From positions 124,001-188,000 of the forward strand of contig NGBS01000008.1 in NCBI GenBank assembly GCA_002245135.1: DNA of 64,000 bases, given 5' to 3'. The notes beneath the pieces were generated by a model. It did no database searches and was not told the origin of the DNA. It saw only the letters and a list, made by a program, of their open reading frames with translations. Shown in pieces: positions 20,688 through 63,031 of the stretch; the first letter of the stretch is position 1, and the number at the start of each line of letters is the position of its first letter. The stretch comes from Proteromonas lacertae (lineage: Eukaryota). A program made the translations under genes and the position numbers.

Positions 20688-21702
20688 TTAATCAATATAT
20701 TGATCAACTGGTAGATCTTCAATATCAAAATCTTCTTTATTAATCGCTTTCAGTGGTTTTGAAGAATCAAAGTCTTTGGATGAAGAATTCCTTTTTAAAC
20801 TATCGTGATATTTCCAAGAATTGAATGGTTTTCTCAAATCAGCTATTGTTTTTGCTTGTCTAAATGAATTATAATAAATGTTAATTTACTTCAACAAATG
20901 AGAATTACCCTTTCTACCATGTTTAGATAGTAAATCATTCTATAATAGAAATAATATTTACATATAATACTTCACTGGATGACTTGATAAAATGATGATT
21001 ATGATGATAAACTTCATTTGGTGATCCTTCTTCTGGTAAACTTGGAATGATTGATTTTATATCAGAAATTGATTTAATAGTATGTTGAGAATCTCTTGCA
21101 CTTATTATTCCTTCTTCAATTTTTAACATAATATCTTAAGTAAGAATTAAAGAAAGAAATAAAATATATGAAAAATGTAATGAAAAAGATATTATATTTT
21201 CTTTTCCTTGAATTGTTTTGACTATATTTAGAATAGGCGATAAACTTGTATGCATGTAGTGATAATAATTTTCTAATCCATAAAGTGCCTAAATAGTGAT
21301 CATTAATTTTTATTACTTCAGCAATAATTCCATCAACATTTATATAATCAAATTCTTTAGAATTTTTACATTCCAAACATTTGTTTATTTCAGTAAATGA
21401 ATCATATAAATGTTTTGTCTTTATTTTGATTAATTCTGGAGAACAATTTGACCTAATGCATTTCAAAGCCTAATTAATTGAAAATTAGTATAAAAGAATA
21501 TATAACTTTCTTAATATTCTGGTACTTTGCATCATTCTTGTATAGATAAATTCCATCACTAAGAAAGCTATCCATTTCTTCTTCAATATCTGATGAATGA
21601 ATTAAATAAAAGATTAAAACCTTCACTTGATTGAATTATTTGCTCTAATGACTTTCCTATACTCTCTAACCTATTTAATTTGCTAATAAATTCACGGTTC
21701 AT
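20688..21702 (-). CDS. Hypothetical protein containing a U12-type AT-AG intron
   Basis: Exons from the ATG at 21702 join through GT-AG introns and the intron 21135-21192; stop at 20688-20690. Confidence 0.6.
21135..21192 (-). other. U12-type intron, AT-AG
   Basis: 5' ATATCTTTT, branch-like TTTCTTTAAT, 3' TTAAG. Only the AG end keeps the frame; the nearby AC end leads to TAA. Confidence 0.7.
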
Positions 21703-21765
21703 TATATATCGTGTTTTATTCAAAATAAATTTCACAAACATATTTCAAGCTTTTTTGAAATAGAA

Positions 21766-22804
21766 ATGGCAATTCCTGTATATCTAGTTGTTATATTTAT
21801 AATATAGATATTTTTTCAAATAGTTTATAAAACTCACTATGCATCATGTTGTTCTTGTTCATCATTTCTTTCTTTAGTTGGATTATTAGTTGTTATAATA
21901 ATGTCATTTGTTACTACCTATTATACTGGATGTATGATATATAATATTATAATGTTAATAGCATTTTGGATGATGGAATGGACTGGTTATGAAAAACCGA
22001 AGGTGTCTTATACGAATGAAGCCTTAATAATATTAGATGGGAATCTTAACAACAATCCTGGTGAATGGATTTGGAGTACAAACCAATATTTAAACAGTGA
22101 ATTAGGTGAAGGAACAGTTCAACCATTATCATTCGAATATAATGAAATCGACAATGATCATGATGGAATAAACGATGCCATTCAATTTTATATAAAAATC
22201 CCCTTACAAAGTAATCAAAAAATCTATTCAATTTCAATATATCCAGTATTTAGTTATAATTTAGAAACATATGCAAAATTATTAATAAATGGAATAGTTC
22301 CAATTAAATTATTTAACTCTGTACCTTGTTCAAAAGTGATAAGTTATGGTGAAATCAAACTACATCAACGAAATATCTTACCAAAATGGGCGAGTTTAAG
22401 AAAATACTATATAAATGATAAACTATTAAATTTCGATTCTTTTAAGTTAGAGGATTTAGATATAGAGAATATATTAAATCGATATTATAGTCGTAATTAC
22501 ACATTATATAATGATAATTTTGATTTTATTTGGAAACCTTATTTTAGTTCAAATGTGAATGAAAATACAATGATAATAAATTCGACATTTTATATTCCTT
22601 TACAACCAATTATGTATATATTTATTATATATATATTACATATTTAGATATGAACCTGATTTAGCTCAAATATTGAAGTTTGGTTGGATTCAATATTTGA
22701 GTATTTTTGTTGTGATTGGAATATTCATTTATTGTGTGTTATACTGTTTATTTACCAATCAATATTTTACAACTGATATAAAAGAGAAATATAAAAATGA
22801 TTAA
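21766..22804 (+). CDS. TMEM231: Ciliary transition-zone membrane protein TMEM231
   Basis: N-terminal TM followed by FW, a DNDHDGIND motif, an extracellular domain and the C-terminal YEPDLAQILKFGWIQYLSIF TM signature. Confidence 0.85.
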
Positions 22805-22936
22805 TTATAATAGAATATTTATTTATTTGATGTTTTTAAAATTTAAAATGAAAAATGTAAAATTTACATTAATTTACTAATTCCAATGTCAAAATCATTT
22901 TCAACCGAAATTTCTGTTTGATTTAATATTGGTTGA

Positions 22937-25900
22937 ATGAATAGTCTAACTAAGTATTTGTTAGCATTTTTGGGATGCTTGTTATGTGTGCTTGCAGTTT
23001 GTCCCAACAATTGTAGTAGTCATGGAAAGTGTGTTGATGGTAAGTGTGAGTGTTTTATTGATCCTGAGACTGGTGAAACTTACACTGGCAATGACTGTAG
23101 TGAACATAATTGTCCAAAGGGCAACCCTTTTTCAGCTGTAAGTTCTCCAACAGCTTCTGGTAGTGGTAGCAGTTATTCAAGTGGATCAAGACGTGAATTG
23201 AATGTAGTTGATGGCGTAAAAGAGAAAAGAAAGCTTGCAGAGCCAGCTGGAGTTGAGATTTCGTTAATTGAATCAGTAGATGGTAATACATTATGGAAAG
23301 TGAAAGGATTAGAGACATTTACTTCCGTAATGCCAAAATCAGGAGGAAAAATAACATGTGATTTTTATAAAGAAGGTGTAGATAAAGTAACAGAAAATGT
23401 TGATATTCGTGGATATACTGATGATTATGCCTATACATTATTCAAGAATCCTGTTACAAAGATAGGTGAAACTCCAAAGCAAGCAGGAAGAAGATTAGCA
23501 GATGATGAATATACTAAAGTAGTGTGTAATGAAATATTGTCTATGAGAGAAGATTTAGTTCATTATAATCTTAATGTTGAATTAACTGTTGCTGGTAGTG
23601 GTGGTGGTAATAGTGCTACTGTAGAAAGACAATTATTTAATAATAGTAGAAAATTGGAAGGTGAATTAACAATGACATGGAAGAATTATGGTCCAATATT
23701 ATATGATATGGGATTATTACCAACAAAAGAAATAATTACACCAAAACCAACACCAGAAAATCAAGGACAAGGAAATAAAGAAGATGAAACAAGAAGAAGA
23801 AGAGTAATGGAAGGTGAAAAAACAGTGTATAAGAATGATAAATTCAAATTTGGATGTTTTGATAAATCTGCTTCTAGTTTAGTAGATGCTGAGATTACAA
23901 TTGTTAATGATGTTACTGGTGTATATAATACTGAAGATAAAAATGTTGTATTTTCATTTACTGATAAAGGATTAGATGCTGGAAAATATTTATGTTATTG
24001 TTTAATGGATGGTGATGGAAATGTATTAGATATTACTGAAACTGATTTAAAGGATAATATAAGACCAAAAGAAAAAGGTAAAACAGATGTGTTTTTATTT
24101 GGTAAATATGCAACTTCTTCTTCAATTACTGATGAGTTGGAGAATAATCATTTATTGATAAAAACGAAAGGTATTACTAGTGGTGAAATTGATGGTGCAA
24201 GTGATTATGCTAAGAAAGAGTATTTTGCTAAAGATAGAGTAGTATATCTTACTCTATTAAATAGTGATTATATATTTGAAGAAAAGAGAGTTGTAATGGA
24301 AGATAATTATAAAATTCCAACAATAACTGGTACAGTATTTCCATATATAAGAACATATCCAATTGATCCTTCAAGTGAATTACCAACCCCAAAAGCTGTA
24401 TCAATACCTTCAACTCCTACATCTGCGCCTTACTTATACAAAATGTATTACTTTGCTGAGAGTGTAATATCTGGATTAGAAGAAGCTGGTGGAATAATAA
24501 AATGTTTAAAAAATGAAAAAGTTGAATTATTGGATGTGAAAGGATTAGTAAAAGATTATAATGTTATTGTTAGATATAGTTACATTGAATCTCAAGATGA
24601 AATAACTGATGCAAATATAATATTGTTAAACTGTTATGGAATAGAAACAAAAAGAAAAGATCTTTCATTAACAAATCCATCCACACTTAGTTTTACTCCT
24701 CCTCCTCCTAATAATAATAATAATAATAATAATCAAAATCGTAGATTTTTGACTGAAAATACTATTACCTGGAAAGGTTATGGTGAAATATTACCAGAGA
24801 TTAAAGTTGATGCAACTGATTCATCATTTGCTTGTTATTTACCATCAGATTTAACTCTACCAATACAAACTATATCAAGTACAATTACAAATGATAATAC
24901 TAATATAGTTTTTACAGTTACTACTACTCCTCTAACTGTATCTGGTGATTATATGTGTTATTTATTAGCTGATGTAAAAGGTAATAAAGTGGAGATTGAT
25001 AAATCAGATTTGTTTTCATTAATCAGAGTTGTGAAGAAAGAAGATCAAACAAATGAATATTATTTTGGTAAATATGAAGTTACTGATAAAGTAGAAATAA
25101 AAAAGGCAGATGATGGATCAGAAGTTATACCATTAGATGGTACAAAGAATAAAATAGAAAAAACTCAGATAGTTTTAACAACTATTCAAGAAGATGTTAA
25201 AGATAAAGTATTAAATAAAATAAAAGTAGGTAATAAATTTCAATTAAAATTACATAAAATCAATGCATTTCATATAGTTAAGATACACGAAATTACTATA
25301 ACCAAAGTTGAAACAGAAACTCAACCAGAAAGGTTATTAGCAGAAACTACAACAATTACATATGATAATCCAATTCCTGAAGGATATACATCTGATAATG
25401 TTCTTTATGATTCTGTACCAATTGTAAAGAAGAATATTGTAGTTAATCCAGTTAATCCTGGTGATGATAAGAGTTATTTATATCAATTGACTGATTTTAA
25501 TAGTGAATTAGTAAAAGATTTAAGTATATTAGGAGGAAAATTACAATGTAAATTGGTTAATACTAATGTTGAAAATAGTAAACCAATTAAAAATCCGATA
25601 AGTAGTATAGTTGATGTAAAAGGAGTAATTCATGAAACAAATAGTGGTTATTATCAATTCAATTATAAAATTGAAGATACACCTAATTCTTTACCAACTG
25701 ATAAAGGTGATCATTATTATGTTGATGATATTGTATGTAATAATATATTATCTACAAGAACTGATTTAACATATTGGAATCCAATTAAAATTGATGATAA
25801 ATTTGATAAAGTAATAACATGGATAGGATATGGAACAATTGCGACAAGTATAAAATATACGTTTACAGAAAACAAAGCTAAAATGGCTTGTTATAATCCA

Positions 25901-27049
25901 AATGATGTAAAGAATAAATTAATCACCACATATGATATTGATGCAAATATTAAAGATAAAGATTTAGAATTTACATTTGGCAAAGAAAATCCATCTGTAG
26001 GTAATATTTGTTATTTATTAGCTGATGAAAAAGGAGGTAAATTGGATATAGAAAATAGTGAATTATCTTCATCAATAAGTAAAGACAGTAAAGGTAATTA
26101 TTATTTTGGTGAATATGTTGATGAAAATAATAAAAAAGATGAAAGTAATGTAGTAGAAAAAGGAGGAATGACATCTGTAATTAATGCAGATGGAAGTGTT
26201 AAAAGTAAGATTAATATAGATTATATTATATTAAAACCTGAAGATAATGCTAATAATACTAAACTTGATTTAAGTCAAGCAAATAATGTTGAAAATCCTC
26301 AAATATTATTACCTCCTTCAATGATTGATATAAGTATTCAAAAAGTAATAACAAGTGGAACAATAATAAAAGTAACAATTTATTATAATGATGGTACTAA
26401 AGAAAAAAAGGATATTCAAATATTAAAAGTAGGAAAAGGTGAAAATAATAAATTTAGTTTAGAATTATCTGATGCTATACCATTAGAAATAGATTCCGGT
26501 GGAAGATTAAGATCATTAGTTCCAGTTGCAGATGTTTTATCAGTTGAAATAAAATGGTTAAGTGAAGGATCAACTCATGCTCCAATAGAATGTAGTGGTC
26601 AAGGAAGTTGTGATAGAACAAGTGGTGTATGTAAATGTTTTGATGGATTTAGTGGAAGTGCTTGTCAAAGATTAGATTGTCCAAATAACTGTAATGGAAA
26701 TGGTCGATGTGTTGCTTTGAGTGAATTATTATCAAATGAAGAATTGAGTAATGCATATGATGGATTTGGAAATAAACATGAAACTACATTAAGTCCTTCA
26801 GGTAGTGTTATATTTGATGATCAAATATTTGGTTGTTTATGTGATAAAAGACATCGTGGATATGATTGTAGTTTGATTGAATGTCCATCTGGTTTAGATC
26901 CAGAAGAAGCAACAAATGATGATTCAAAACAAGGAAGTGAATATAGAGATTGTAGTGGAAGAGGTATTTGTAACTACAATACAGGTGTTTGTGAATGTTT
27001 TGATGGATTTAGTGGAGAAGGATGTCAAAACATGGTTCAAATGATGTAA
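22937..27049 (+). CDS. Secreted EGF-like protein, Sig1/Ocm mastigoneme-like, with a large repeated insert
   Basis: Signal peptide, then CPNNCSSHGKC and CPKG. The C-terminus has ECSGQGSCDRTSGVCKCFDGFSGSACQR, CPNNCNGNGRC, CPSGLDP and DCSGRGICNYNTGVCECF. Intronless. Confidence 0.7.
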   Translation: MNSLTKYLLAFLGCLLCVLAVCPNNCSSHGKCVDGKCECFIDPETGETYTGNDCSEHNCPKGNPFSAVSSPTASGSGSSYSSGSRRELNVVDGVKEKRKLAEPAGVEISLIESVDGNTLWKVKGLETFTSVMPKSGGKITCDFYKEGVDKVTENVDIRGYTDDYAYTLFKNPVTKIGETPKQAGRRLADDEYTKVVCNEILSMREDLVHYNLNVELTVAGSGGGNSATVERQLFNNSRKLEGELTMTWKNYGPILYDMGLLPTKEIITPKPTPENQGQGNKEDETRRRRVMEGEKTVYKNDKFKFGCFDKSASSLVDAEITIVNDVTGVYNTEDKNVVFSFTDKGLDAGKYLCYCLMDGDGNVLDITETDLKDNIRPKEKGKTDVFLFGKYATSSSITDELENNHLLIKTKGITSGEIDGASDYAKKEYFAKDRVVYLTLLNSDYIFEEKRVVMEDNYKIPTITGTVFPYIRTYPIDPSSELPTPKAVSIPSTPTSAPYLYKMYYFAESVISGLEEAGGIIKCLKNEKVELLDVKGLVKDYNVIVRYSYIESQDEITDANIILLNCYGIETKRKDLSLTNPSTLSFTPPPPNNNNNNNNQNRRFLTENTITWKGYGEILPEIKVDATDSSFACYLPSDLTLPIQTISSTITNDNTNIVFTVTTTPLTVSGDYMCYLLADVKGNKVEIDKSDLFSLIRVVKKEDQTNEYYFGKYEVTDKVEIKKADDGSEVIPLDGTKNKIEKTQIVLTTIQEDVKDKVLNKIKVGNKFQLKLHKINAFHIVKIHEITITKVETETQPERLLAETTTITYDNPIPEGYTSDNVLYDSVPIVKKNIVVNPVNPGDDKSYLYQLTDFNSELVKDLSILGGKLQCKLVNTNVENSKPIKNPISSIVDVKGVIHETNSGYYQFNYKIEDTPNSLPTDKGDHYYVDDIVCNNILSTRTDLTYWNPIKIDDKFDKVITWIGYGTIATSIKYTFTENKAKMACYNPNDVKNKLITTYDIDANIKDKDLEFTFGKENPSVGNICYLLADEKGGKLDIENSELSSSISKDSKGNYYFGEYVDENNKKDESNVVEKGGMTSVINADGSVKSKINIDYIILKPEDNANNTKLDLSQANNVENPQILLPPSMIDISIQKVITSGTIIKVTIYYNDGTKEKKDIQILKVGKGENNKFSLELSDAIPLEIDSGGRLRSLVPVADVLSVEIKWLSEGSTHAPIECSGQGSCDRTSGVCKCFDGFSGSACQRLDCPNNCNGNGRCVALSELLSNEELSNAYDGFGNKHETTLSPSGSVIFDDQIFGCLCDKRHRGYDCSLIECPSGLDPEEATNDDSKQGSEYRDCSGRGICNYNTGVCECFDGFSGEGCQNMVQMM

Positions 27050-29587: not shown

Positions 29588-30316
29588 ATGTCTAATCTAT
29601 CTACTCCAACAGAAGGAGTGATATTTGATATAATAGAAAAAATGACAAAGCCCTTATGTTCAAAAGTGAGTTATAACTCTCTAAACATCTTACAGAAAGT
29701 ATTGACCTCAGAATGTGATGAAAAATCGAGTAATTTATGTGTTAAAGAATATAATGATATTTCTATCATTGTATATATCTTATTTTACTGTTTCTGTATA
29801 GTACAATCGAAGTAACAAGAAAATTGAGTTATCTTCCTGTGAAGTTGTTGAACAATTAAACAAATCAAACGATAATTTAGATGTTTCAACAATAATACAT
29901 GAGATGAGTATATTCGAATTGCCTCCTTTATTAAATCCACTGCCAAAAAGTATTTGTGAAGAATATGAAAGACACATAGCTAATATTGATAAGATAAATG
30001 AAATATTGAATAGTTTAAAAGATATAATCCCAAAGTTTCTTAAAGACTTGCCATTTTCCAAACTACCATACGAAATACATGGAAAAATATAAAGAAATCT
30101 ATGATGGAAAAGAAATTAATAATGATAAAGATGATGTGCTAATAATATCAATAATAAAAGAAGAAATTAAAGAATATAATGAAAAGATAAATGAAATTAT
30201 GAATGGAATTAAAACTAAGCTAATTCCACTCAACAAACAATTACATGATTATTATGATGAATTAAACTAAAGAATACATAAGAAAATATGGTAATAAACA
30301 ATACAAAATATTAGAA

Positions 30317-30356
<40 letters not shown>

Positions 30357-31608
30357 TAAGATATAAATCAATAAGTGATATTTCAAATAATAATGAGAAT
30401 AATATCAAAACAGAAATGAGTAGTGTATCTGTTTGATAAAACAATAAATGAGATAACATGATAAATATATTATATCTCCAACATGTAACAATCTGTTAAA
30501 TATGAATATAAATAAAAATAAAAATAAAAATGATAAAAATTCAATACTATTGTCATTGAATATATTTGAAAGTATATTTTTGAATAACAACAATTACACA
30601 AGTGAAAGTGATGTATTATATCCAAAGGAATATAATAAATATACACATCAAATAGTATATGAAAATGTAATAATCAATAAATATAAAGACCCACAATCAT
30701 TTTATCAATTTTATTATCAGAATTTGATATTTCAATCACTTCTAGAGAATAATGAAAAAATGTATATAATATAATATAATATTATAAATATATTAATGTA
30801 ATTTAGATTGTTAAATTTCACAGTAAATGATAAAAACAGTTTCAGTATAGTTGCTCCAAAGATAATTATTAATAACAAATACATAATTCCAATAGATAAA
30901 AGTTCATTTCGTTCCAAATACTTATGAAGAAGAATACAATGATAATGAAATAGAATTATACAAATTTCTCAATGATATTAATAAGGATAAGATAGAAGTG
31001 AGATTTATTCATTTATCATATAATGGAAAAGTGAGAACTGATATTGCTACAAATATAGAAACAGCGGATTTGAAATACAATAATCAAAATCTGATGAATA
31101 ATATTCAATATTTTATGAATGACAGTGAAAGTGATGATGATAATCAATGTATTTGTTATCATAATCATAATTATATCAATATAAAACAAATTAAAGATGA
31201 TGAATCTAATTTCACTCTTTCTAATGAATGTGTTATAGAAAATAACTATAATTCTTATCAAATTGAAGTATAACAAGTGTAAAAATTCAATTCATACTTT
31301 ACCATATATTAAATTGACCTTATTGTTTGAATTATCTTCAATTTCAAGATTGTCCTTTGAAGAATATTTGCCCTAAAATACATATATATCCTCTAATTGA
31401 TATTGGATATTATTTATATACAAAATATAAAAGTGTAGATGGAAAGATTGAAGAAGAAAGTGTTAGTTTGGATTGTAAATCTTTTAATATTTGTAGTGAT
31501 TTCTTAAATGGTTGTTGTAGGTCGTCTTATGGATCATTGAAGTGTAAGAATAAACATTGTTCTCAATCTGAAGCTTTGAAATTGATAAGTAATTCAATTA
31601 AAGTATAA
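29588..31608 (+). CDS. CCCH zinc-finger-containing protein broken by serial +1 frameshifts (recoded gene, pseudogene or assembly error)
   Basis: Consecutive open segments each continue in the +1 frame. GT-AG introns at 29771-29801 and 30762-30806; C-terminal CCCH-like motifs CLNYLQFQDCPLKNICPKIH and CSDFLNGCC...CKNKH. Confidence 0.55.
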
Positions 31609-39636: not shown

Positions 39637-40167
39637 ATGGGAAAAGGAGGTAAAGGAGGTAATAAAGGTGGAAAGAGTGATAAAGGTGGATCTAAAGAAC
39701 CTGCTGCTGCTACAGTACCAAAAGGTGGAGGTTCAAAAGTCAAAGTTCGTCATATTCGTATAAGTTGATATAATAAATGCATATAGTATGTGAAAAAGAA
39801 GGTAAAATTCAAGAAGCAATGAAGAAATTAAAAGAAGGAGTTCCTTTTGCAACTGTATTAGATAATTTATGAAGTGTAGGTAGCTCAGGAGTATAGTGAA
39901 GATAAGGCAAGACAAGGTGGAAGTTTAGGGTATATATATAGAATATATTATATTGATAGTTGGATTACTAGAGGTCAAATGGTGTATATTTTGTAATTTT
40001 GTGAATATATAGAGGTACTTTTCAAGATGCTGCGTTTGCACTTCCTAAAGGACAAATGACATATCTTTTTCTATTTACAATCATTATTTATTCTTAACAA
40101 ATATAACCAAACTCCAATAAAAACTCAATTTGGTTGGCATATCATTCTATGTGAAGATAGAGCTTAA
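39637..40167 (+). CDS. PIN4: Parvulin Par14/PIN4 peptidyl-prolyl isomerase
   Basis: G/K-rich N-terminus, VKVRHILCEK, YSEDKARQGGSLGW, FQDAAFALP and PIKTQFGWHII; five introns. Confidence 0.93.
40061..40106 (+). other. U12-type intron, AT-AA
   Basis: 5' ATATCTTTT and branch TTCTTAAC. The conserved parvulin frame requires the exon to resume at 40107, after AA. Confidence 0.7.
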
Positions 40168-40261: not shown

Positions 40262-41754
40262 TTATTTATTATTCGTTAAGTATTTGGAAATATGTTGTTC
40301 AATTTCATATCTTGCCATTTTAATTATTTCAGTATCATTTTCATTAGGAGACCATATTGGCATATGATGAGAAGCACTCTATTAATAAATAAAAATGAAA
40401 TAATAATAATAATATACTGGTAAGAAGAAAACATCTTGATTATCTGATTCTATAATACTCATTGCACTCCAGGGATCTATACCTCCGTTTAGCCAGAATA
40501 TATTACTTCCTCTTTGATCAAATCCTCCAAAATGAGCATTTGTTTCATCCATCAACTCTTGAGTAACTTCAATTCCATAAGTATCTTTACATTGTTCAGC
40601 GAAGTATTCAACAGGTAAGTAATTTCCAAATATTTGATTTTTTGATCCTGTTGTTTGATACCATCCAAATTCACTACATGTCTGATACCACCAACTTCGA
40701 TCATCACTATATTTTATATCTCGACGAATTGATATGTATTTTTCATAGTTTACATTCATACACTTTTCACCATGGAAATGTTTATGAGCATTTAACATCA
40801 TTTTATATACTTCACTTTCATTTCCATGGAATATTTTACACAATGAATTGATTGTTGTTGGATTAGATGGTTTATCATATTGAATTACTTCCCAATAACT
40901 ATCATATACATTACTTATAAATAAATGTTCATCTTTTTTACTCACTATATTTTCACATAAATTAAAATCATTCTTTAATTCATTCTTTCCTTCTTCACTT
41001 TGAACCATTCTCTCTAATAATTCAAATCCATTCTTTATATTATCATAACATTCTTTTCCATTTTCAGCTGTTAATACGGCTTTACTAGCTACTTCATTAA
41101 ATTCAAACATATCCATCTTCGCATAAACTGGACCACTATCTGCAATTGCACCTGCAAAATAATGAGGATATTTCAATCGAGCCCAAGCACTTAATGTACC
41201 ACCATAACTACCTCCAAATGTTATCCATTTACTGTTTGGACTGTTATATTTCTTCGTTATAAATTGACGAAATGTGGATAAATCAGCTAAAGCTTGTCTT
41301 ACAGATAAATATCGTAAATGTTCTACTGATGTATCACTAAATGGCTGACTCTTACCATAGAATCTATGTTCAACTGCAATAGCTAATGCACCAAATTTTT
41401 TGGCATATACCATCATTGCTGAATCTACAACCCATATTGTTGAAAGTGGTGCTTCACAACCTATGTACAAGAAAATAGGATTGCCAATTTTCCAAAATGT
41501 ATCATTTATATAGTACAACTGTTGGTACGTTCGATTATCTTGTAAATCAAAGTGATCTAGTCTTTGAGTAAACCATTGATCAGGTAAATCTTTCAAACCA
41601 TTGGATTTCAATCTTCTTTCATATTCTACTACTTCTGGACTATTCATGATTGATCTTAATCGATGTGCATCAGCATAAATGACTATTCATATAAATATAG
41701 TATAATAATTGATATACAAAATGCAATAAATAGCAGGAATAAACGAATATTCAT
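40262..41754 (-). CDS. Serine peptidase family S28 (PRCP/TSSP-like), copy A
   Basis: Signal peptide, QRLDHF, EHRFYGKS, GGSYGG, QTCSEFGWYQ and NGGIDPW. Confidence 0.92.
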
Positions 41755-44700
41755 CGTTTAAAGAAATCGGGTGTGCGAAAATAATGAAACACAATTTTAT
41801 TTTTTCGATTTATTCTTTCACCAAACAAATAATATGATTAATAAATAATTATAAATTAAATAAATAATTATAAACTTCTATTAAATATCAAACGGGTCAT
41901 GTTTTACTATACATTTAGAAATTAGCTTATTGAATCTTTCTCTTCTCTTCAAAGATCCAGTTTTCAATAAATCAAAATACTGATGTACAGCACATGGAAT
42001 ACTTCCATCAATATTAACAATTAAATTTGCTTCATTCAATATATCTTCATCAACAAAGTTATTGCTTATATCCAATCCAAAATTCCTTACCATTCCTCTC
42101 TCATTATGACTAAAATACACAGAATAGTTAAAATGTGGATGTAAATAATAAAATACATTCAAAACTCCTTGTTCTGTAGTTGTTTTTAATACACTATAAG
42201 ATATGTTTGATAAATATTCAGTATAATCATTTAAAAACAAAGACAATTCATAAAAAGATCCAAATATATTCCCAGAGTTTATATTTGTATTATTATAAAT
42301 TGAATAAGGAGGGGATAAAGCAGAAATCCATTCTTTGGCATATCTATTTTGATTTATATTTAATCTACTACTCTCTTCAAATAAAAATACACAAGTTTCT
42401 GGATAATTCCAATGAAAAGGATTGATTTGGAAAAATACATCTCTTACATCACTAAAATGAATATATGTGAATAATTTACCATAGTGATTTAAGAATGTAT
42501 TTAGAATAAAGAATCTTATGGTATGTGAGAAATAACCATATTCTTCATTTAGATGAGGTATTGAATTGATTAAATCATCATAGGGAATATAATACTTATC
42601 TTCGTTTATTGGATAATAAGGATATGTTCTTGTTATTCGTAGAAAATAGAAATTGGATGGGAATTTGTATTGCATTTCATCATAATTATCATAAAATAAA
42701 ATAACACTTCCATTATAACCTGTATTAAGTAAGCTTAATAGATAAACTGTTATATATGAAGCATTGTAACATATTGAAAATCCAATTACTGCAGTTTGTG
42801 AATCATCTCTATTTGGGATTACTTTGTAGTTGTGAAATTCATCTTCATAATTGAATGAATACTTACCTAGATACTGATGTCTATTGTAATTTGGGAAATT
42901 TTTATAATATTCATGGTAATATCTAGCACTATATTGTATTGCCAAGAAAAGTGACCAAACTATGAACAATATTAAACAAAATATGAAATTTTCAGTTCTA
43001 AAACATTTCCTTAACATTCTAAAACGAATTTTATTATCTACAACAGCAACAGAAGCCATTTATTCGGAATATAATAATCTCAAACTGTCAAGCTTTTTTT
43101 GACTGTTTTTTTGAAATTCAGAGCGTTGTAGGGTTTATTAAATTGATCTTTTATGTTTATTAATATATCATGATAATTATTACTATGATGATGGGAATAA
43201 AAAGTGTTAATAGAGAGTGGTTGAGAAATGAATGTCAAAACACAATTACAGTCATTATAGATGAAGATATGAAGTATAAAAATACTTGAGAAACAATTAA
43301 TTGTTTTTTGTGGGGGTATATGTACAACGCAGAAGTATTTTAGTGATTAACCAAACTCCATTGTATTTATAAAGAAAATATTCCTATAAAGAAGTATATG
43401 TAGTAAAATGTTAATAATATCATAAATATTGTATTTGTTTTAATAGTTTATTATAGATTCAGTGAAGTGAATCAAGATTTATGAATGAATCAAGTTATGT
43501 TGATTTTTATCATGTTGTTTTAACAGGTTTTTCTTTTTTAGCTACTTTTTTTAGATGTTTCATAACATCCAGCCATATAATATCTATTCACACTTTTTCT
43601 TAATGAAAAATTCTTGCAACTTCTTCAATAACAAACTTCTTCAATGAACCATCAATAGAAGTTTGCCTTTTTCTTTTCATTAGCATTATGATTTATAACA
43701 CGAATAAATAAATTGTGTTAAAAATGGATTTTAAACAATTTTTAAAGCTTGTTAGTTTGTGTTTATTTTAGTCAAACTTTTGACTTAAATTAATTACCCC
43801 ATTTCTTTAAACGATGAATATTCGTTTATTCCTGCTATTTATTGCATTTTGTATATCAATTATTATACTATATTTATATGAATAGTCATTTATGCTGATG
43901 CACATCGATTAAGATCAATCATGAATAGTCCAGAAGTAGTAGAATATGAAAGAAGATTGAAATCCAATGGTTTGAAAGATTTACCTGATCAATGGTTTAC
44001 TCAAAGACTAGATCACTTTGATTTGCAAGATAATCGAACGTACCAACAGTTGTACTATATAAATGATACATTTTGGAAAATTGGCAATCCTATTTTCTTA
44101 TTTATTGGATGTGAAGGTCCTCAATCTTCTTATTGGGTGGTTGAATCAGCAATGATGGTATATGCTAAGAAATTCGGAGCTATGGGAATAACAATCGAGC
44201 ATAGATTTTATGGTAAGAGTCAACCATTTAGTGATACATCAGTAGAACATTTACGATATTTATCTGTAAGACAAGCTTTAGCTGATTTATCCACATTTCG
44301 TCAATTTATAACGAAGAAATATAACAGTCCAAACAGTAAATGGATAACATTTGGAGGTAGTTATGGTGGTACATTAAGTGCTTGGGCTCGATTGAAATAT
44401 CCTCATTATTTTGCAGGTGCAATTGCAGATAGTGGTCCAGTTTATGCGAAGATGGATATGTTTGAATTTAATGAAGTAGCTAGTAAAGCCGTATTAACAG
44501 CTGAAAATGGAAAAGAATGTTATGATAATATAAAGAATGGATTTGAATTATTAGAGAGAATGGTTCAAAGTGAAGAAGGAAAGAATGAATTAAAGAATGA
44601 TTTTAATTTATGTGAAAATATAGTGAGTAAAAAAGATGAACATTTATTTATAAGTAATGTATATGATAGTTATTGGGAAGTAATTCAATATGATAAACCA

Positions 44701-45136
44701 TCTAATCCAACAACAATCAATTCATTGTGTAAAATATTCCATGGAAATGAAAGTGAAGTATATAAAATGATGTTAAATGCTCATAAACATTTCCATGGTG
44801 AAAAGTGTATGAATGTAAACTATGAAAAATACATATCAATTCGTCGAGATATAAAATATAGTGATGATCGAAGTTGGTGGTATCAGACATGTAGTGAATT
44901 TGGATGGTATCAAACAACAGGATCAAAAAATCAAATATTTGGAAATTACTTACCTGTTGAATACTTCGCTGAACAATGTAAAGATACTTATGGAATTGAA
45001 GTTACTCAAGAGTTGATGGATGAAACAAATGCTCATTTTGGAGGATTTGATCAAAGAGGAAGTAATATATTCTGGCTAAACGGAGGTATAGATCCCTGGA
45101 GTGCAATGAGTATTATAGAATCAGATAATCAAGATT
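40430..45136. repeat. Near-identical inverted duplication of about 1.3 kb (arms about 40430-41767 and 43801-45136)
   Basis: The S28 copies A and B are reverse complements, including the first intron and the bases just upstream of the ATG. Confidence 0.9.
41881..43059 (-). CDS. Type II membrane GT-A-like glycosyltransferase
   Basis: N-terminal TM, SDVRDVFFQ.NPF (DxD), INSG, EQGVLN and VHQY; intronless. Confidence 0.7.
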   Translation of the reverse strand: MASVAVVDNKIRFRMLRKCFRTENFIFCLILFIVWSLFLAIQYSARYYHEYYKNFPNYNRHQYLGKYSFNYEDEFHNYKVIPNRDDSQTAVIGFSICYNASYITVYLLSLLNTGYNGSVILFYDNYDEMQYKFPSNFYFLRITRTYPYYPINEDKYYIPYDDLINSIPHLNEEYGYFSHTIRFFILNTFLNHYGKLFTYIHFSDVRDVFFQINPFHWNYPETCVFLFEESSRLNINQNRYAKEWISALSPPYSIYNNTNINSGNIFGSFYELSLFLNDYTEYLSNISYSVLKTTTEQGVLNVFYYLHPHFNYSVYFSHNERGMVRNFGLDISNNFVDEDILNEANLIVNIDGSIPCAVHQYFDLLKTGSLKRRERFNKLISKCIVKHDPFDI

Positions 45137-45293
45137 TAATTTATGTTCCTGTATATTTATTTATTATTTTAATTTATAGAGTGCTTCTCATTGTGCTCCA
45201 ATTTATAGTCCAAGTCGTGAAGATAGTGAAGCGATAAATATGGCAAGATATGAATCTGAGCAACATATTGCTAAATATATTTCATCTAATTAA
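43814..45293 (+). CDS. Serine peptidase S28, copy B
   Basis: Same motifs as copy A. Confidence 0.92.
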
Positions 45294-45380
45294 ACCATTA
45301 TATAACCCTGGAAAATGTTTTTTATTTTTTGGAGCGACTTTTTTCATTCAAAATTCTCGAACCATCTGTGTCTTTCTAAA

Positions 45381-46961
45381 ATGAAGATCATTCTTTTTAT
45401 TGCACTTCTAGCCTGTGGTATAATTATATTTTTTATTGAATCTAATATAGCTGTTGCTTACAGACCAAAGCACCACATATCTGTCATGGAGAGCAAGTTT
45501 CATTCAAGATTATGAGAGAGATCTCAAGTTAGGAAAGGTCAAAGCAGTGCCAGAAGAATGGTTTACTCAAAGAATTGACCATTTTAACTTACAAGACAAT
45601 AGAACATACCAACAATTATATTTCGTAAATGATGAATATTGGAAAGTTGGTGGACCGATATTCTTATTCATTGGTGCAGAAGGTCCAGCAAGCTCAGGTT
45701 GGGTAATGAGTTCAGCCATGCATACCTATGCAAAGAAATTTGGAGCAATGTGTGTAATGTTAGAACACAGATTCTACGGTAAGAGTCAACCCTTCCCAGA
45801 ATCAACCACTGAGAACTTAAGATACTTATCGTCAAGACAGTCACTTGCAGATATGTCAACATTCAGAAACTACATCAATAAAAAGTACAATTCACCAAAC
45901 AGTAAATGGATTACCTTTGGTGGTAGTTATGGTGGTTCATTAAGTGGTTGGGCAAGATTAAAATATCCACATGCATTTGCTGGAGCTATTGCTGATAGTG
46001 GTCCAGTCTTTGCCAAATTAGACTTCTCTGAATATAATGAAGTAGCTACTCAAGCAATATTATCTTCAGAAAATGGCGAAGAATGTGCCAATTATGTTAA
46101 AAAAGGATATGAAGCAATAATAGCCTTAGTAAAAACACCAGAAGGTCAAGCCAAACTTAAATCAGATTTCAATTTCTGTGAAGATGTGAAGAGTGAAAAG
46201 GATCAACATAAATTTATTGAAGATATCACTGATATGTTTATGGGAGTTATTCAATACAGCAGTCCAAACCATCCAACCAGTATTGAAAGTAAAATATGTA
46301 ATTATTTCAATAGTAAATTCACTTCAGATCCATATATGATGTATATATATATATATATATAATTAAGATATAATTATTTTTTTAGGATGTTAAATTTTTC
46401 AAAATCCAATACTGGTAGTGAATGTTTATCAATCAGTTATGATGCATTTATTAATGAAATGAGAAATACATCACCTTCTTCTAGTAGATCATGGGTATGG
46501 CAAACATGTAGTGAGTTTGGTTGGTATCAAGCCTCTACATCAAAGAATCAAGTATTTGGTGATTATTTACCTGTTGAATATTCAATACAGGAAGTATTTT
46601 TTATATTATTATTATTATTATTTTAGTGTGTGGATATATATGGTAAAGAAGCTACTCAAGAGTTGATGGATGAAACAAATGCTCATTATGGAGGGTTTGA
46701 TCAAAGGGGAAGTAATGTATTTTGGACTAATGGAGGTGTTGATCCTTGGCATGCTATGAGTATCATAGAATCTGATAATCAAGATGTTGTTTATATTCCT
46801 GTATATCTATATATCTATTATTGTTGTTATATTTAATAATTTAGAGTGCATCTCACTGTGCACCATTATACACTGAGAGTGAGTCAGATCCTGAAAGTAT
46901 TAAAATGGCACGTTATTTAACTGAACAACATATAGCTAAATACTTAGCTGGTAATAATTAA
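45381..46961 (+). CDS. Serine peptidase S28, copy C (more divergent)
   Basis: QRIDHF, EHRFYGKS, GGSYGG and NGGVDPW; four introns. Confidence 0.92.
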
Positions 46962-47482: not shown

Positions 47483-48354
47483 ATGCAGTATTTTTCTAGT
47501 CAGTAATGCTTATTAGAACCCAAAGGGTATATGTAACAAACTGGGAAGACTATGAAACAGCTGAAGACTTAAATATCCTAATGAATTTCAGGGTATTTAG
47601 TTGCCCAATGCAAAATCAGTTTGGAATATGTATCATCCAACAAATGACGCAGAATGGCTATGAAAGAGCACACGTATAGGTTGAAAATTTTAAAAATGTA
47701 GCATGATTGTTTTTATTCCCATTGCTTAGAAGATAAAAGAAGAATACCTATTATTGAAAGCAATGTAGAAGCATACAGTCCATCAATGTGCAATTACTAT
47801 AACAGAAAGAATGGTAAATGTAAGTTTGGTGAGAAATGCAAATATTGCCACACGTATATTTTATTTTTTATTTTTCTGATTAGTGCATTAGAACTGTTAT
47901 TTCACCCAGAAATTTACAAAACAAAAATGTGCCAGTATGTTATAGAAAATCAAAATTGTCCTTCTGGAAAATATTGCTGCTACGCTCACTCAAAAAACAT
48001 ATCATTTTAAATCATATGGAGAAGTTGATTAGATTGTTTTCTTAATTTTTCAGGAATTAAGGAGTCGACCTCCTGTGTACAATATATCAATTGAAAGTAT
48101 ATATCCTCGTCCTGCTTATGCAGATATTATACCCAACCAATTTACACAGTATAAAATTTTAATAATTGTTTCTGGTAATATACTAACGTAGGATTAATCA
48201 TGATATGATATATACTGACGGATATGATATAGAAGTCCCGGACATTCTTACTGATTCAACTAATTATCAAAATGAACTTTATCAACAAAGATTCGAGAAT
48301 AGAATCCAAAGTTTGTTGAATAGCTTCTCAGATTTTGGGCCCATAACTCATTAA
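47483..48354 (+). CDS. Tandem CCCH zinc-finger protein (unkempt/TZF-like)
   Basis: CFYSH...KRR.P, C..GEKCKYCH..LELLFHPEIYKTKMC and CCYAHSKN-ELR. The start codon is tentative. Confidence 0.75.
47999..48053 (+). other. U12-type intron, AT-AG
   Basis: 5' ATATCATTTT, branch TTTTCTTAAT, 3' CAG. Removal restores the AHSxxELR motif. Confidence 0.7.
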
Positions 48355-52955: not shown

Positions 52956-54191
52956 TCATAAATTCTTCAATAATTTTCTCACTACATAATAATCTGTTGG
53001 TGTATTCATTATAATCCTCCTAGAATTATTCATTATATCAAACAAAAACTTTCTAAACACTTCTTTTCTTTCATCACTTCCATATTTAAATCCATATTCA
53101 TACTGATGTACAGCTAAAGGAATTGTATTATCTTCATTTCTAAACAACAACAAATCATTATCAGAAGGACCATATTCACTATCACTATATTGCAAATCTA
53201 TTCCTAAAATTCTTGCATAACCAGTTTCAGCTTGAAAGATATATAAAGGATATTTACGAGGTTTTTCACAATTCTCAATCAACCAATAATTCAATACTCC
53301 TTGATCACAAGTTTCATTATAAGCTCTAGTTGACATAAATTCAATATAATCATTATAAAACAATAATAAATCCCTTGAACTACCAAATATTTGACCAGAA
53401 TTAACAAATGTATGTGTTTCTAAATACGATTGAGGAGGATTAAAAACCATAATCCAATTATAATTAGCTAAGCTACAACTATGAGAATCGATATATTTAC
53501 AATGACGGGTTTCTTCTGTTAAATATATTCCTCTGTTATTATAATTCCACGAGAAAGGGTTATGTTGGAATGCAATATCTCTAACATCGCTGAAGAAAAT
53601 ATGTGAAAATTTATTCTTATATACTTTTAACCATACATTAAATAATATATGTCTAATAATGTGCCAGAAAAATGGAATGTTTGTTAAACGAGGAATAGAG
53701 TTTCTTATTACATCAGGTATTGGGTATAAAGGATGGTTGGCGGGATAATAAGGATATTCTTCGCTGAATATGATTGGTTGTATATCATAATCTGTTAAAT
53801 TATTCTGATACTTCTCATAACTTCCATCATGAACAAACATTATTATTGCACCTTTATATCCAACACCTCTTAGTGAATGAAAATATGGTCGTACTGTCCT
53901 CCATCTATTTTTTGCTATTAAACCCATCACAGCTACGTTCTTGTCTGATCTTTGAGTATATGGAACATATGAAAAATTCCGAAGGATGTAATATTCTTTA
54001 TCGTCTAATTCATCTCTTACTTCTGTTCTTAGCACTGAAATATGCTTATATTGATTATTCACTTCACTCATTACCTCTTTCAAAGTATCTGCACTATACA
54101 TCGACCAGTATATTAAACCTATCATTGCAAAGAGAAAGAATATCTGTATTATCATCTTTATCATTCTAATTACACAATTACTTAATGTCAT
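52956..54191 (-). CDS. Type II membrane GT-A-like glycosyltransferase, paralog of 41881-43059
   Basis: TM, SDVRDIAFQHNPF, VNSG, DQGVLN and VHQY; intronless. Confidence 0.7.
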   Translation of the reverse strand: MTLSNCVIRMIKMIIQIFFLFAMIGLIYWSMYSADTLKEVMSEVNNQYKHISVLRTEVRDELDDKEYYILRNFSYVPYTQRSDKNVAVMGLIAKNRWRTVRPYFHSLRGVGYKGAIIMFVHDGSYEKYQNNLTDYDIQPIIFSEEYPYYPANHPLYPIPDVIRNSIPRLTNIPFFWHIIRHILFNVWLKVYKNKFSHIFFSDVRDIAFQHNPFSWNYNNRGIYLTEETRHCKYIDSHSCSLANYNWIMVFNPPQSYLETHTFVNSGQIFGSSRDLLLFYNDYIEFMSTRAYNETCDQGVLNYWLIENCEKPRKYPLYIFQAETGYARILGIDLQYSDSEYGPSDNDLLLFRNEDNTIPLAVHQYEYGFKYGSDERKEVFRKFLFDIMNNSRRIIMNTPTDYYVVRKLLKNL

Positions 54192-54197
54192 GTCAAT

Positions 54198-55211
54198 TTA
54201 TGTCAATTCGTATTTTGTTATATAAATACACAATAAACATGAAAATAAATTAAATAGAAAATTAACTAACAAAATTATATACTAGACGCATGACCACTCA
54301 ATTCCGCAATCAAATGATCAACTATTAAAATGTAAAATCATATTATATATACTCATTTGAATTGTTTCAACAGCTACATCTAAATCCTCTTTATACAATT
54401 TACTATCAGTAGTATTAAAAGTCTTCACTAATAAACTACAAATAGAAAATCGATAAACAAAAAGTGTATTTTCACCATCAGATATAACAAATTTTGAAGT
54501 AGATTCCATAAACTTTCCAACTATTCAAAAGATACAATAAAATACAATAAAAATACGTATTTCTTCCGCTGGGTCTATCATAGCATGATAATTCGCCATT
54601 ATTGATATTTCATCACCATATAAATGAAAATCGTGATAATCACCTAAGATTATTTTACTATTTTGTTCTAGAAAGGCAGCTTCAATTCCATGGATTTGCT
54701 GTAGGTTTTTTAGTACAGGAATTATTGAGTTTTTGATTATATCTATTATACAATTTTCAAATGAAGAAAAATTGAAAACTGAAAAGTTTTCGAGGTGAAG
54801 TTGAGAAGAGTATTGACGACTAAATGATGTTAGAGTCTCTGAAGCTAAAATTCTGCCAAAATATTGACAGTATATATTGTCAAAAAAGCATATATATTAT
54901 TCATTTCAAAACAAAAAAGATATATCAACAGAATCAAGCATAACTGCACAAGATACATTATTAAGATCATCAAAAACGATAGAAACTGATGCTATACTTA
55001 TTAAAAGTAATAAAATACATGAGTTAAGCTCGATATATGAAAAAGACATACCAAATTTGCTTTTAGCCGATTCTCTCATTGTAGCTATCAGAGAACCTAA
55101 CATCCTTGTCTAGAAAATATAAAGATAAATTTGTACGTGTCCTTTAGCGATATATTCTTTAGTGAATAACACTATCCCTCCAGATGAAATGATTAGAATT
55201 GCTCTTATCAT
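54198..55211 (-). CDS. Longin/roadblock-like domain protein (3' end uncertain)
   Basis: MIRAILIISSGGIVLFTKEY...RMLGSLI...FSYIEL...FGRILASE; four GT-AG introns and one AT-AC intron. Confidence 0.6.
54870..54923 (-). other. U12-type intron, AT-AC
   Basis: 5' ATATCTTTT, branch TTTTTGAC, 3' ATAC. It contains an in-frame TGA, and phase-0 removal opens a long exon. Confidence 0.85.
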
Positions 55212-55330
55212 ATAACATATATATATCCTTATTTTTGTGCTTAACCTGATTGTTTATCGATTTTTAAATTTTTAATTTTTTTGTTAATGATTTGACTATA
55301 TCAAGCTTTTTTAAATTTCAATTTAAAAAT

Positions 55331-59934: not shown

Positions 59935-60287
59935 TTTATCAAAATTGAAAATGCAAAATGGTTTGAGAGAGGTTTGATACTTTTTTAATGTTTTTCTGTT
60001 TTTCTGCCAGGAAAAAGTTATTTTTCATACAATATCAGTTTTATCGTAATATTAACACTCTATTAAGCAATATTATCTATTTACTTCAAATGATTCAATA
60101 ATCTACACAAATTGTGAGAATAAAATATCTTTTGTTATTTTCGTCATGGAAACAATCCGATTATATATTCATACAATTCAAGCACTGTATTGTAGCGAGT
60201 AATACACTTGAACAAGATTGAATTTTGTTTTAAAACCAAGCTTGAAACAGTCGAGCATTCGCAAATTGTATTTCTTATTTTGTCATA

Positions 60288-61609
60288 ATGGAGGTTGAAA
60301 CGTATATAATATTTTTATATTCTTATTTATTTTTGGAATATATATTCTATTTTCTATAGAATATCCTTTTTTTGTTATAGAAGTAAAAATCAATTAGTTT
60401 TCTTGACTGACTATAGTCACCATCACCAGAAATCAGAAAGTATATTGCATTTTATATAATAATTAGACTTGGCAAAGAAGTAGAAGAATCACTGTACAAA
60501 GTCTTCGATGCAGGTAAGAATATTAAATATCTAAAAATTTATTAGAAACTCAATTACGAGAGAAGGTAATATCAATTTTGAAAGCTTTGAAATTACCTTT
60601 TTCTCAAACTGTTCCAAACAACAACGATTTAATCTTGAAGAGAATTACAGCCGCAATGACTAACATAGTATATCAGTGTAGTTCCAAACAATCTAACGAA
60701 TTATTACTATTACGTTTTTATGGTAAAGGAACTGAAGCATTTTTCTCACGAAAGAACGAAATTGCTGTATTTCAACGATTAAGTGAAATTGGATTTGGTC
60801 CAAAATTAATTGCTAAATTTAACACCGGTAGATTTGAGACCTTTTTAGTTAATTACAAGCCATTAGTCGAAAGTAACGCTCATACTCCAGAAGTCGTTGA
60901 GAAAGTAGCTAAGAAGTTATATGAATTTCATCACATTGATGTACCTTCCATCTCTCATGAAAATGGTATAATTCACAAGCTTGATAAATGGTTTGAAGGT
61001 GCAAAGAAGGAAAACAAAGAAAGTGAATGTTTCTTGATGGATAATGTTTATAATGAATTACAAAATCTAAAAGAATTACTCAGTAAGATTGATAATTCGC
61101 CAATCACATTTTCTCACTGTGATCTACAATGTGGTAACATCATGTTACACAAATCAGGAGATATAATGTTTATTGACTATGAATATGCCTGTTATGCACC
61201 TCGTGGTTATGATTTTGCTAATTACTTTAGTGAGTAGTATAGACTTACACCTATTTTATTTTTATATAGTATGTATGATTATAATTCAGTAAATGCAGAT
61301 TCTTGTTATGTTGATCGATTTCCAACTGAAGAAATTCAAAGAATATTCTTTGAAGCTTATCTTTCTATGAATAAAGAGAAGAATGATGATACAGTTGAAT
61401 CATTAATGAAGGAAATGAAACCACATATTTGTACAGCTGCTATGGTTTGGATTTTATGGGGAATAGTTCAAAATGCTGTATCTACAGTTGATTTTAACTA
61501 TGAGAATTACACAGTAGAAAAAATCAACTTTTATTATGATAAGAAGAAAGAAATCTTTGGAGTTGAATCTCTTCCTTTATATGATCCGTCTAGAATACAT
61601 GGATTATAA
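60288..61609 (+). CDS. Choline/ethanolamine kinase, copy 1
   Basis: AMTN, LLRFYG, GPKL, Brenner motif HCDLQCGN and FIDYEYA..PRGYDFANYF. The 5' exons were reconstructed by hand. Confidence 0.92.
60361..60416 (+). other. U12-type intron, AT-AG, preceded by a 1-nt exon at 60360
   Basis: ATATCCTTT...TTTTCTTGAC...TAG, starting one base after the AG of the GT-AG intron 60302-60359. Confidence 0.78.
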
Positions 61610-61731
61610 TACGTTTGTTTTTTTGTTAGAAAGATCCAAATTTGTTTTTGTTTTGGTGTGTTTTTGGGTGTTTTTTTTTACTTAGCTTGATTATTCAAGC
61701 TTTTTACATTTTTTTTCTTTTTGTAAGATTT

Positions 61732-63031
61732 ATGGAAGTAGAGAAGTATACTTTATATTATTATTTATATTTTACTATAGAATATCTTTTTTTTTCATTG
61801 TAAAAGTTAAGTTAATCAGTTTTCTTAACCAATATTAGTCAACATCACAGGAAGTTAGAAAGTAAGTGTATAAAATATAATTATTAGACTTGGTAAAGAA
61901 GTAGAAGAATCACTTTACAAAGTATCTGATGCAGGTAAGAATTATTGAATATCTAAAAATCTCTTAGAAACTGAGTTGAGAGAGAAAGTTATATCCATTT
62001 TAAAAGTATTAAAATTGCCATTTTCTCAAACTGTTCCAAACAACAACGATTTAATCTTGAAGAGAATTACAGCAGCTATGACAAATATTATTTATCAATG
62101 TAGTTCTAAACAATCTAACGAATTATTACTATTACGTTTTTATGGTAAAGGAACTGAAACTTTCTTTTCTAGAAAAAACGAAATTGCTGTGTTTCAAAAA
62201 ATGAGTGAAATTGGATTTGGTCCAAAATTAATTGCTAAATTTAACACCGGTAGATTTGAGACCTTTTTAGTTAATTATAAACCTTTAACAAGAAGCAATG
62301 CATATACACCAGAAGTGATTCAAAAAGTAGCTAAGAAGTTATATGAATTTCATCACATTGATGTACCTTCCATCTCTCATGAAAATGGAATGATAACTAA
62401 ACTTGATAAATGGTTTGAAGGTGCTAAAAGAGAGAATAAAGAAAGTGAATGTTTCTTGATGGATAATGTTTATAACGAATTACAAAATCTAAAAGAATTA
62501 CTCAGTAAGATTGATAATTCGCCAATCACATTTTCTCACTGTGATTTATCTTGTGGTAATACTATGATGAGTAAAACAGGAGATATTGTACTTATAGACT
62601 ATGAATATGCCTGTTATGCACCAAGAGGATTTGACTTTGCTATTTATTTCGGTGAATAGTATAGATTTACACCTAATTTATTTATATATAGTATGTATGA
62701 TTATAACTCTGTTAATCCTGAAGTATGCCATGCTGACTGGTTTCCAACTGAAGAAATTCAAAGAATATTCTTTGAAGCTTATCTTTCTATGAATAAAGAG
62801 AAGAATGATGATACAGTTGAATCATTAATGAAGGAAATGAAACCACATATTTGTACAGCTGCTATGGTTTGGATTTTATGGGGAATAGTTCAAAATGCTG
62901 TATCTACAGTTGATTTTAACTATGAGAATTACACAGTAGAAAAAATCAACTTTTATTATGATAAGAAGAAAGAAATCTTTGGAGTTGAATCTCTTCCTTT
63001 ATATGATCCGTCTAGAATACATGGATTATGA
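61732..63031 (+). CDS. Choline/ethanolamine kinase, copy 2 (tandem paralog)
   Basis: HCDLSCGN and LIDYEYA; same exon layout as copy 1. Confidence 0.92.
61782..61838 (+). other. U12-type intron, AT-AG, preceded by a 1-nt exon at 61781
   Basis: ATATCTTTT...TTTTCTTAAC...TAG, starting one base after the AG of the GT-AG intron 61746-61780. Confidence 0.78.

Follow-up and report, generated by a model that had tools for sequence, protein, structure and literature searches.

Introduction

Blastocystis offers the closest described minor splicing system to the one studied here. In Blastocystis ST1, 346 of about 35,400 introns are U12-type, typically AT-AC, and all four minor small nuclear RNAs (snRNAs) are present (Gentekaki 2017, PMC5608401). 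A second count gives 253 U12 introns, 77% of them AT-AC, with a mean length of 42 nt and 49% in phase 0 (PMC5608401, PMC10639083). B. hominis is listed at 0.29% minor introns, in a source whose main text mentions neither AT-AG nor AT-AA (PMC11347168). We analysed six candidate AT-start introns in a stretch of Proteromonas lacertae DNA (GCA_002245135.1, contig NGBS01000008.1, positions 124,001 to 188,000; below, the window, 64,000 nt numbered from its first base). The six are very probably real U12-type introns, and most of them are likely to end in something other than AC.

The candidates resemble the U12 introns of Blastocystis ST1 and ST7, a likely close relative, in being very short, dominated by AT starts and rich in phase 0. 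Five of the six are in phase 0, an excess that recalls the inverted phase bias found among minor introns in Blastocystis. The difference lies in abundance and ends. U12 introns make up about 1% of introns in Blastocystis, with 77% AT-AC, but about 5-6% in the window, where one of six is AT-AC.

Physarum polycephalum, with its hugely expanded minor system (Larue, Elias, Roy; bioRxiv 10.1101/2020.10.12.336362), shares high density, ATATC[C/T]TTT donors, a branch site 9-12 nt from the intron end and gain in young genes. Its top non-canonical classes, AT-AG (29%) and AT-AA (27%), are the ends seen here. In Physarum, however, the non-canonical class makes up 0.8% of all introns (some 1,000 U12-type, against 1,830 annotated AT-AC), and non-AC ends are a minority, whereas they are the majority of our small sample. 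GT-start donors dominate there (3021 vs 627 perfect motifs), while no GT-start U12 intron was seen here, and the branch motif is TTTGA rather than TTYTTRAY.

A-type minor introns of animals and plants have the same donor and branch consensus as the window's candidates, with AT-AA, AT-AG and AT-AT as known variants (PMC8280824, PMC10639083, PMC8199999); AT-AN variants are known in humans (PMC8280824). Among AT-start minor introns, 12% of those in animals and 11% of those in plants have a non-AC end (computed from Table S1 of PMC10639083), against four of five independent sites here. The branch-to-end distance is 10-20 nt (optimum 11-13) in animals and plants and 8-11 nt here, although counting conventions may differ (PMC8280824, PMC8199999). 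The distances in the window are thus at or just below the published range and like those of Physarum.

In the sources cited, AT-AG and AT-AA are a small minority in animals, plants and Physarum, and Blastocystis is mostly AT-AC. If it holds, a genome with a non-AC majority would be a natural experiment on minor 3' site choice and on the weight of terminal pairing. Alongside Physarum, it would also offer another independent setting in which to study how new minor introns are gained. Standard gene finders would mis-annotate a sizeable share of its genes; in the window this concerns six of some 35 that are predicted. Among the matches listed in the literature there was no paper on minor introns in Proteromonas, although the original genome paper may comment on introns. 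The word 'Proteromonas' has no match in the Larue and Roy supplement (PMC10639083).

Six AT-start sites carry U12-type signals

All six sequences lie where a preliminary description of this DNA had placed them. Each has an AT-start U12-type donor, ATATC[C/T/A]TTT, on the sense strand of a gene; the perfect donor form is found in intron 5 only. A branch site like TTYTTRAY had been noted for all six; the motif is exact in five and has one mismatch in intron 1. Donor and branch motif together match five times in the window, against a mean of 0.32 in shuffled sequence, and none of 100 shuffles reaches five. Shuffling within local blocks gives means of 0.50 and 0.54, with five reached in 1 of 300 and 0 of 300 shuffles. 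The donor alone is not enriched in the window (18 observed, about 16 expected). The search pattern was taken from the earlier finding itself, and it is near the published U12 consensus. A GT-start version of the pattern has no match in the window, in line with the reported lack of GT-start U12 introns, though only 0.14 matches are expected by chance.

The candidates were compared with 82 GT-AG introns, taken from a gene-finder run that allowed U12 introns and stripped of calls of 100 nt or more. These major introns have A at +3 in 82/82, C at +5 in 0/82 and a TAG end in 80/82. The candidates have C at +5 in 6/6. An exact branch motif near the 3' end occurs in 5/6 candidates and in 1/82 GT-AG introns (P=9e-7), or in 8/82 if one mismatch is allowed. 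The candidates are also longer, as had been noted (46-57 nt, whereas the GT-AG introns have a median of 32 nt and 7/82 of them reach 46 nt; P=7e-5), once intron 1 is measured as 57 rather than 58 nt. The idea that they are U2-type introns with odd ends failed, as their donors are unlike the GTAT and GTAA major donors and the U12 branch motif is present. The signals, their enrichment and the contrast with major introns are observed directly, as are the reading frames on both sides of sites 1-4. Two further U12-like donors, at 55223 (+) in a promoter-side T-rich gap and at 53253 (-) in an open frame without branch motif, are not intron-like.

The similar lengths (46-57 nt) would also suit an origin from a mobile element of the Introner type, copied with odd ends, and some of the host genes have no known minor intron. 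Among the 15 pairs of intron interiors in the window, however, none is more alike than shuffled sequence (lowest p 0.06), and the parts that the introns share are exactly the U12 signals. A mobile origin is largely refuted by this and is hardly credible.

A small self-trained gene finder, with approximate handling of stops, gave a separate view. Restricted to GT-AG it called 85 introns (median 33 nt) and broke, truncated, distorted or missed all six host genes. Its three calls above 58 nt (79, 123 and 230 nt) look like artefacts of the model. With a U12 option that weighted AA, AC, AG and AT ends equally, it called 88 introns. It picked introns 2, 4, 5 and 6 exactly as first described and made no other U12 pick. 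The gain was 3 log units when only AC ends were allowed and 23 with all A-N ends. Under a relaxed coding score all six donors were picked among 104 introns, along with one probably spurious site, 30291-30364 (-), which we discarded, since it runs antisense to coding sequence on the plus strand. Motif statistics, gene finder and homology together support the U12 identity. Removing the intron restores the frame by homology for introns 2 and 3 and by the gene finder only for introns 4-6. For intron 1, a relative's proteins give the donor and frame, and coding score gives the end. The junctions listed in the feature table are predictions.

Feature table. Candidate U12-type introns, their host genes and associated features (window coordinates)
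Feature	Position	Strand	Details
Dynein heavy chain, closest to outer-arm beta chains	6410-20540	-	4,637-codon frame, unbroken
Host gene 1, lineage-restricted	20688..21575	-	gene model, predicted 234 aa
U12-type intron 1 (candidate)	21136..21192	-	57 nt, AT-AA, phase 0; branch motif 21146-21153 (one mismatch), end +11
GT-AG intron, host gene 1	21289-21316	-	28 nt; missing from relative
Parvulin (Pin4/Par14-like) gene	39637-40167	+	hosts intron 2
U12-type intron 2 (candidate)	40061..40106	+	46 nt, AT-AA, phase 2; branch motif 40091-40098, end +9
Unkempt/TTP-like CCCH-finger gene	about 47506-48354	+	hosts intron 3
U12-type intron 3 (candidate)	47999..48053	+	55 nt, AT-AG, phase 0; A at +6; branch motif 48039-48046, end +8
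Roadblock/longin-like gene	about 54275-55211	-	hosts intron 4
U12-type intron 4 (candidate)	54870..54923	-	54 nt, canonical AT-AC, phase 0; branch motif 54879-54886, end +10
Choline/ethanolamine kinase copy A	60288-61609	+	hosts intron 5
GT-AG intron, copy A	60302..60359	+	58 nt; upstream of 1-nt exon
Predicted 1-nt exon (A), copy A	60360	+	chosen by gene finder without given coordinates
U12-type intron 5 (candidate)	60361..60416	+	56 nt, AT-AG, phase 0; branch motif 60400-60407, end +10
Choline/ethanolamine kinase copy B	61732-63031	+	hosts intron 6
GT-AG intron, copy B	61746..61780	+	35 nt; upstream of 1-nt exon
Predicted 1-nt exon (A), copy B	61781	+	paralogous to 60360
U12-type intron 6 (candidate)	61782..61838	+	57 nt, AT-AG, phase 0; branch motif 61822-61829, end +10

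Introns 1 to 4 and their predicted ends

Intron 2 interrupts a parvulin gene. Its in-frame ends are AA at 46 nt, CA at 49 nt and AC at 52 nt; an AC at 47 nt is out of frame. When GT and GC donors were enumerated, no GT-AG intron repaired this frame. The broader statement, that none does so at any of the six sites, holds here but is too strong for sites 3-6: sites 3 and 4 can be repaired from GT or GC donors of atypical sequence, and genes 5 and 6 by long GT-AG introns. Removing 46 nt reproduces the register T-x-x-P-[VI]-K-T of human Par14 and H. pylori HP0175. Against eight prokaryotic parvulins (ten loci, two dropped for want of the motif) the 46-nt form outscores the 52-nt AC form, which removes two residues, in six cases and ties in two. 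A search of the PDB with the upstream Pin4 exon returned nothing informative.

Intron 1 lies in a gene with three matches, one of them credible, among 1.84 billion representative proteins, and with no Pfam match. The credible relative (P0130) is identical at 36/45 positions to the exon before intron 1, first intron codons included, once the 28-nt intron 21289-21316 is removed. Eight variants of the relative's protein are near-invariant up to the donor and then split into two reading frames (three and five variants), which is expected of a non-coding T run. The relative's proteins set the upstream exon in phase 0. In this frame an AC end (53 nt) runs into a stop within 7 codons, and the AG end at 21135 (58 nt), given in the preliminary description, into a stop after 3. 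That AG end would need phase 1, which does not match the relative's protein; the ends first assigned to introns 2-6 stand. Ending at AA (57 nt) or AT (60 nt) adds 128 coding residues joined across two normal introns, with a coding score of +33 vs -97 and -58 in the other frames. Intron 1 therefore most likely ends in AA at 21136, with the 60-nt AT-AT form as an in-frame alternative. A short C-terminus and an overlapping downstream gene are a possible arrangement instead. The homologues cover the upstream side of this junction and none spans it; an Atlas search with the exon after intron 1 gave only leads below 0.9. The 28-nt GT-AG intron upstream is absent from 8/8 variants of the relative, pointing to a recent intron gain or loss.

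Intron 3 sits directly after the last His of a CCCH finger. With its AG end the protein reads H-x-x-x-E-L-R, in the same register as a peptide from human tristetraprolin (PMC4091943). A search for zinc-finger homologues of this gene confirmed 0/11 candidates. At intron 4, the sole other nearby in-frame AC is the branch site itself. The roadblock/longin fold of its host gene (Atlas score 0.81) is a lead only.

Terminal ends and a distance rule

By the predicted junctions, three ends are AT-AG (two of them paralogous), two AT-AA and one AT-AC, or 2, 2 and 1 at independent sites. An AC end fits at intron 4 only; at the other five sites an in-frame AC either does not exist, leads to a stop or agrees less well with homologues. 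Non-AC ends thus make up 4/5 independent sites (95% confidence interval (CI) 28-99%), so the reported non-AC majority is supported, in small numbers. The further statement that AT-AG outnumbers AT-AC stands at 3:1 (2:1 for independent sites), but AT-AA, with two, equals independent AT-AG.

From branch A to intron end the distances are 11, 9, 8, 10, 10 and 10 nt in introns 1-6. We tried 55 rules (minimum distances of 4-14 nt, five exclusion sets). A single one is consistent with all six ends, namely that the intron stops at the earliest AA, AC or AG whose last base lies 8 nt or more beyond the branch A. Among random choices of A-N ends, 20/5400 admit some rule, or 20/1350 without intron 6. The rule accounts for AA being taken despite a following C or G, for the AC skipped at +7 in intron 1 and for the AT skipped at +8 in introns 4 and 5. 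The six sites are likely to be real AT-start minor introns, and it is probably their distance from the branch point that sets the 3' ends. In such a pathway U11 and U6atac would read the ATATC(C/T)TTT donor, and U12 would pair with TTYTTRAY, bulging the A. The second step would pass over AT and use the nearest AA, AC or AG lying 8 nt or more beyond the branch A (8-11 nt as observed). Choosing the end by branch distance would loosen the usual pairing of first A with last C, with AG and AA predicted to serve as well as AC. Relaxed terminal pairing, as first proposed, is a plausible reading. Should RNA confirm the cuts, this minor spliceosome would be unusually relaxed in its choice of ends.

Several results weigh against these readings. 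The motif-free search for AT-AN introns picked 0/6 sites and, at a lighter penalty, four unrelated spots. Under the relaxed coding score, the gene finder ended intron 1 at 70 nt with the wrong upstream frame. At intron 2, removal of 49 nt, ending in CA, gives the top score against 6/8 parvulin homologues. The distance rule is post hoc and rests on the one-mismatch branch site of intron 1. An Rfam scan of the window, at both thresholds, gave no match of any kind and hence no snRNA. Only five sites are independent, and the window was chosen for being rich in such introns. Finally, a shift by one base would turn either AA end into AC or AG, and the window contains two +1 frame breaks elsewhere that are unexplained.

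This last point could mean that both AA ends are assembly errors, with a C missing at intron 2 (true AT-AC) and a G missing at intron 1 (true AT-AG). One added base per site does give an in-frame AC or AG, the AC of intron 2 would fall at +10, the spacing of introns 4-6, and assembly errors may likewise underlie the +1 breaks, which fall in A runs near 30073 and 30263. However, the predicted coding sequence amounts to 48 kb and includes 10,290 homopolymer runs, yet no more than two breaks were seen in it, and a frame of 4,637 codons is unbroken. Both breaks are extra A's, not a missing C or G, and two such errors falling exactly at AA ends are very unlikely. We regard this explanation as highly improbable.

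Kinase paralogs with a predicted 1-nt exon

The hosts of introns 5 and 6 are tandem choline/ethanolamine kinase genes whose main exon is 90% identical. The two introns are paralogs, leaving five independent sites. Both copies have the same layout of a 14-nt exon, a GT-AG intron, a single A, an AT-AG intron and a 23-nt exon. Donor, branch motif (GAC vs AAC) and the 10-nt spacing are conserved between introns 5 and 6, and the spacer bases have diverged. Major and minor spliceosomes would together join a 1-nt exon in both genes. A 1-nt internal exon is known from Arabidopsis APC11 (PMC4674806). The predicted exon here, with a major intron on one side and a minor one on the other in both paralogs, is likened to it by size. 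Kinase relatives (P0121-P0129) are unspliced open reading frames (ORFs) that begin after the U12 intron.

A further point on the opposing side arises here. Since 1 + 23 is a multiple of three, a single GT-AG intron of 165 nt (copy A) or 142 nt (copy B), from a normal GTAT donor, could skip the 24-nt cassette in frame. Genes 5 and 6 can be repaired by one GT-AG intron in the range 101-165 nt, and copy 6 also admits 59 or 88 nt with an intron retained. The major spliceosome might then serve sites 3, 5 and 6 through long cassette-skipping GT-AG introns or by direct AT-AG splicing, with the U12 motifs as relics and no 1-nt exon. The ends of introns 5 and 6 do match the major acceptor TAG, and identity between the paralogs in the 23-nt exon (18/23) is not separated from that in the neighbouring introns (41/58 and 20/27). 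Yet none of the 82 retained GT-AG introns reaches 100 nt (by the cut-off used), and longer calls are artefact-like. Donor and branch motifs are intact and equally spaced in both paralogs, and the GT and GC alternatives at site 3 wreck the zinc finger or its last His. Overall, the long GT-AG repairs fit worse than U12-type introns at several sites, and splicing of these three sites by the major machinery seems unlikely.

Density and genome-wide scope

Minor introns make up 6/103 of the introns in the window (5.8%, CI 2.2-12.2%) or, counting independent sites, 5/102 (CI 1.6-11%), which agrees with the several percent first reported. Against 0.98% in Blastocystis ST1 this gives P=0.0006 (6/103) or P=0.003 (5/102). 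The four of five non-AC ends give P=0.0009 against the animal rate of 12% and P=0.018 against a rough 26%. All of these figures come from one window chosen for this feature, so density and non-AC share are biased upward and the P values are uncorrected for selection.

A rich, unrepresentative draw from ordinary Blastocystis-type minor introns, at about 1-2% genome-wide and mostly AT-AC, could also give such a window. This explanation shares our local reading of the six introns and differs only on the genome-wide claim. The Blastocystis counts given above favour it, as do the wide intervals and the flagging of the window for this feature; the P values for 5/102 and for 4/5 non-AC ends argue against it. 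We consider it possible, short of probable. That a non-canonical majority at several percent density extends genome-wide is itself a tentative prediction. So is the fuller picture of a flagellated Blastocystis relative whose minor spliceosome handles several percent of introns, takes AT starts almost only, has largely dropped end pairing in favour of a non-canonical majority, joins a 1-nt exon and keeps gaining introns in young genes; we offer it as a possibility.

Many of these introns may be lineage-specific gains, as proposed for Blastocystis and Physarum. PIN4, CHKA, ETNK1, UNK and UNKL have no match in eight human and mouse minor-intron supplement files (PMC6717393). Together with the lone credible homologue of host gene 1, their absence from these tables fits such gain.

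Gene content of the window

The window is densely packed with genes and has a GC content of 27.4%; P. lacertae is listed at 27.0% GC without public annotation (Table 1 of the source). For the window's ribosomal protein SA, the best match that carries a name comes from Blastocystis ST1, and the other matches that name an organism are, all but one, from what we take to be stramenopiles. Proteins of a relative, known as unspliced ORFs, are about 84-91% identical to window proteins. Two single-exon window proteins have no match in the protein collection. DNA of relatives was sought in four ways. A kinase alignment run against JGI metagenomes confirmed 0/258 stretches, and a search with the Pin4 intron-junction pattern gave 0 matches. 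In prokaryote genomes, a ribosomal protein query found 80 prokaryote loci, all at 47% identity or less and none a relative. In viral contigs one locus was found, at 24%, which is chance level.

The host is flagellated, because the window encodes an outer-arm axonemal dynein (the beta-type heavy chain) and TMEM231. Nearly all flagellar genes have been lost in all Blastocystis (PMC10690189), in contrast to the host here. The flagellar genes thus speak for a host other than Blastocystis and, with the GC content, for one that is probably Proteromonas-like; a tree of the ribosomal protein did not place it. The dynein gene (6410-20540, -) is intron-free over about 13.9 kb, although the genome is otherwise intron-rich. 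The last TMEM231 intron (22614-22647, +) is GT-AG and in phase 2, near Pfam position 258. It presumably occupies the site of the human and mouse minor intron, which would make it a minor-to-major conversion. In human and mouse, TMEM231 carries an AT-start minor intron (PMC6717393 supplement tables). A search of the PDB with TMEM231 gave nothing informative.

The two +1 breaks noted above lie in a coding-like stretch at 29588-30433 (+), which has either assembly indels or become a pseudogene. Three serine-peptidase-like genes, presumably of family S28, occupy 40265-46958, where two near-identical inverted copies flank an unannotated ORF (41881-43059). Another unannotated ORF, 52956-54197, resembles the latter. 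An intronless gene at 22937-27049 (+) encodes a predicted secreted protein of 1,370 aa with, by inspection, EGF-like cysteine repeats at both ends. A TGTTTT-like motif follows the stop within 80 nt in 15/30 predicted genes (a raw count, without chance control), resembling the downstream element of Blastocystis.

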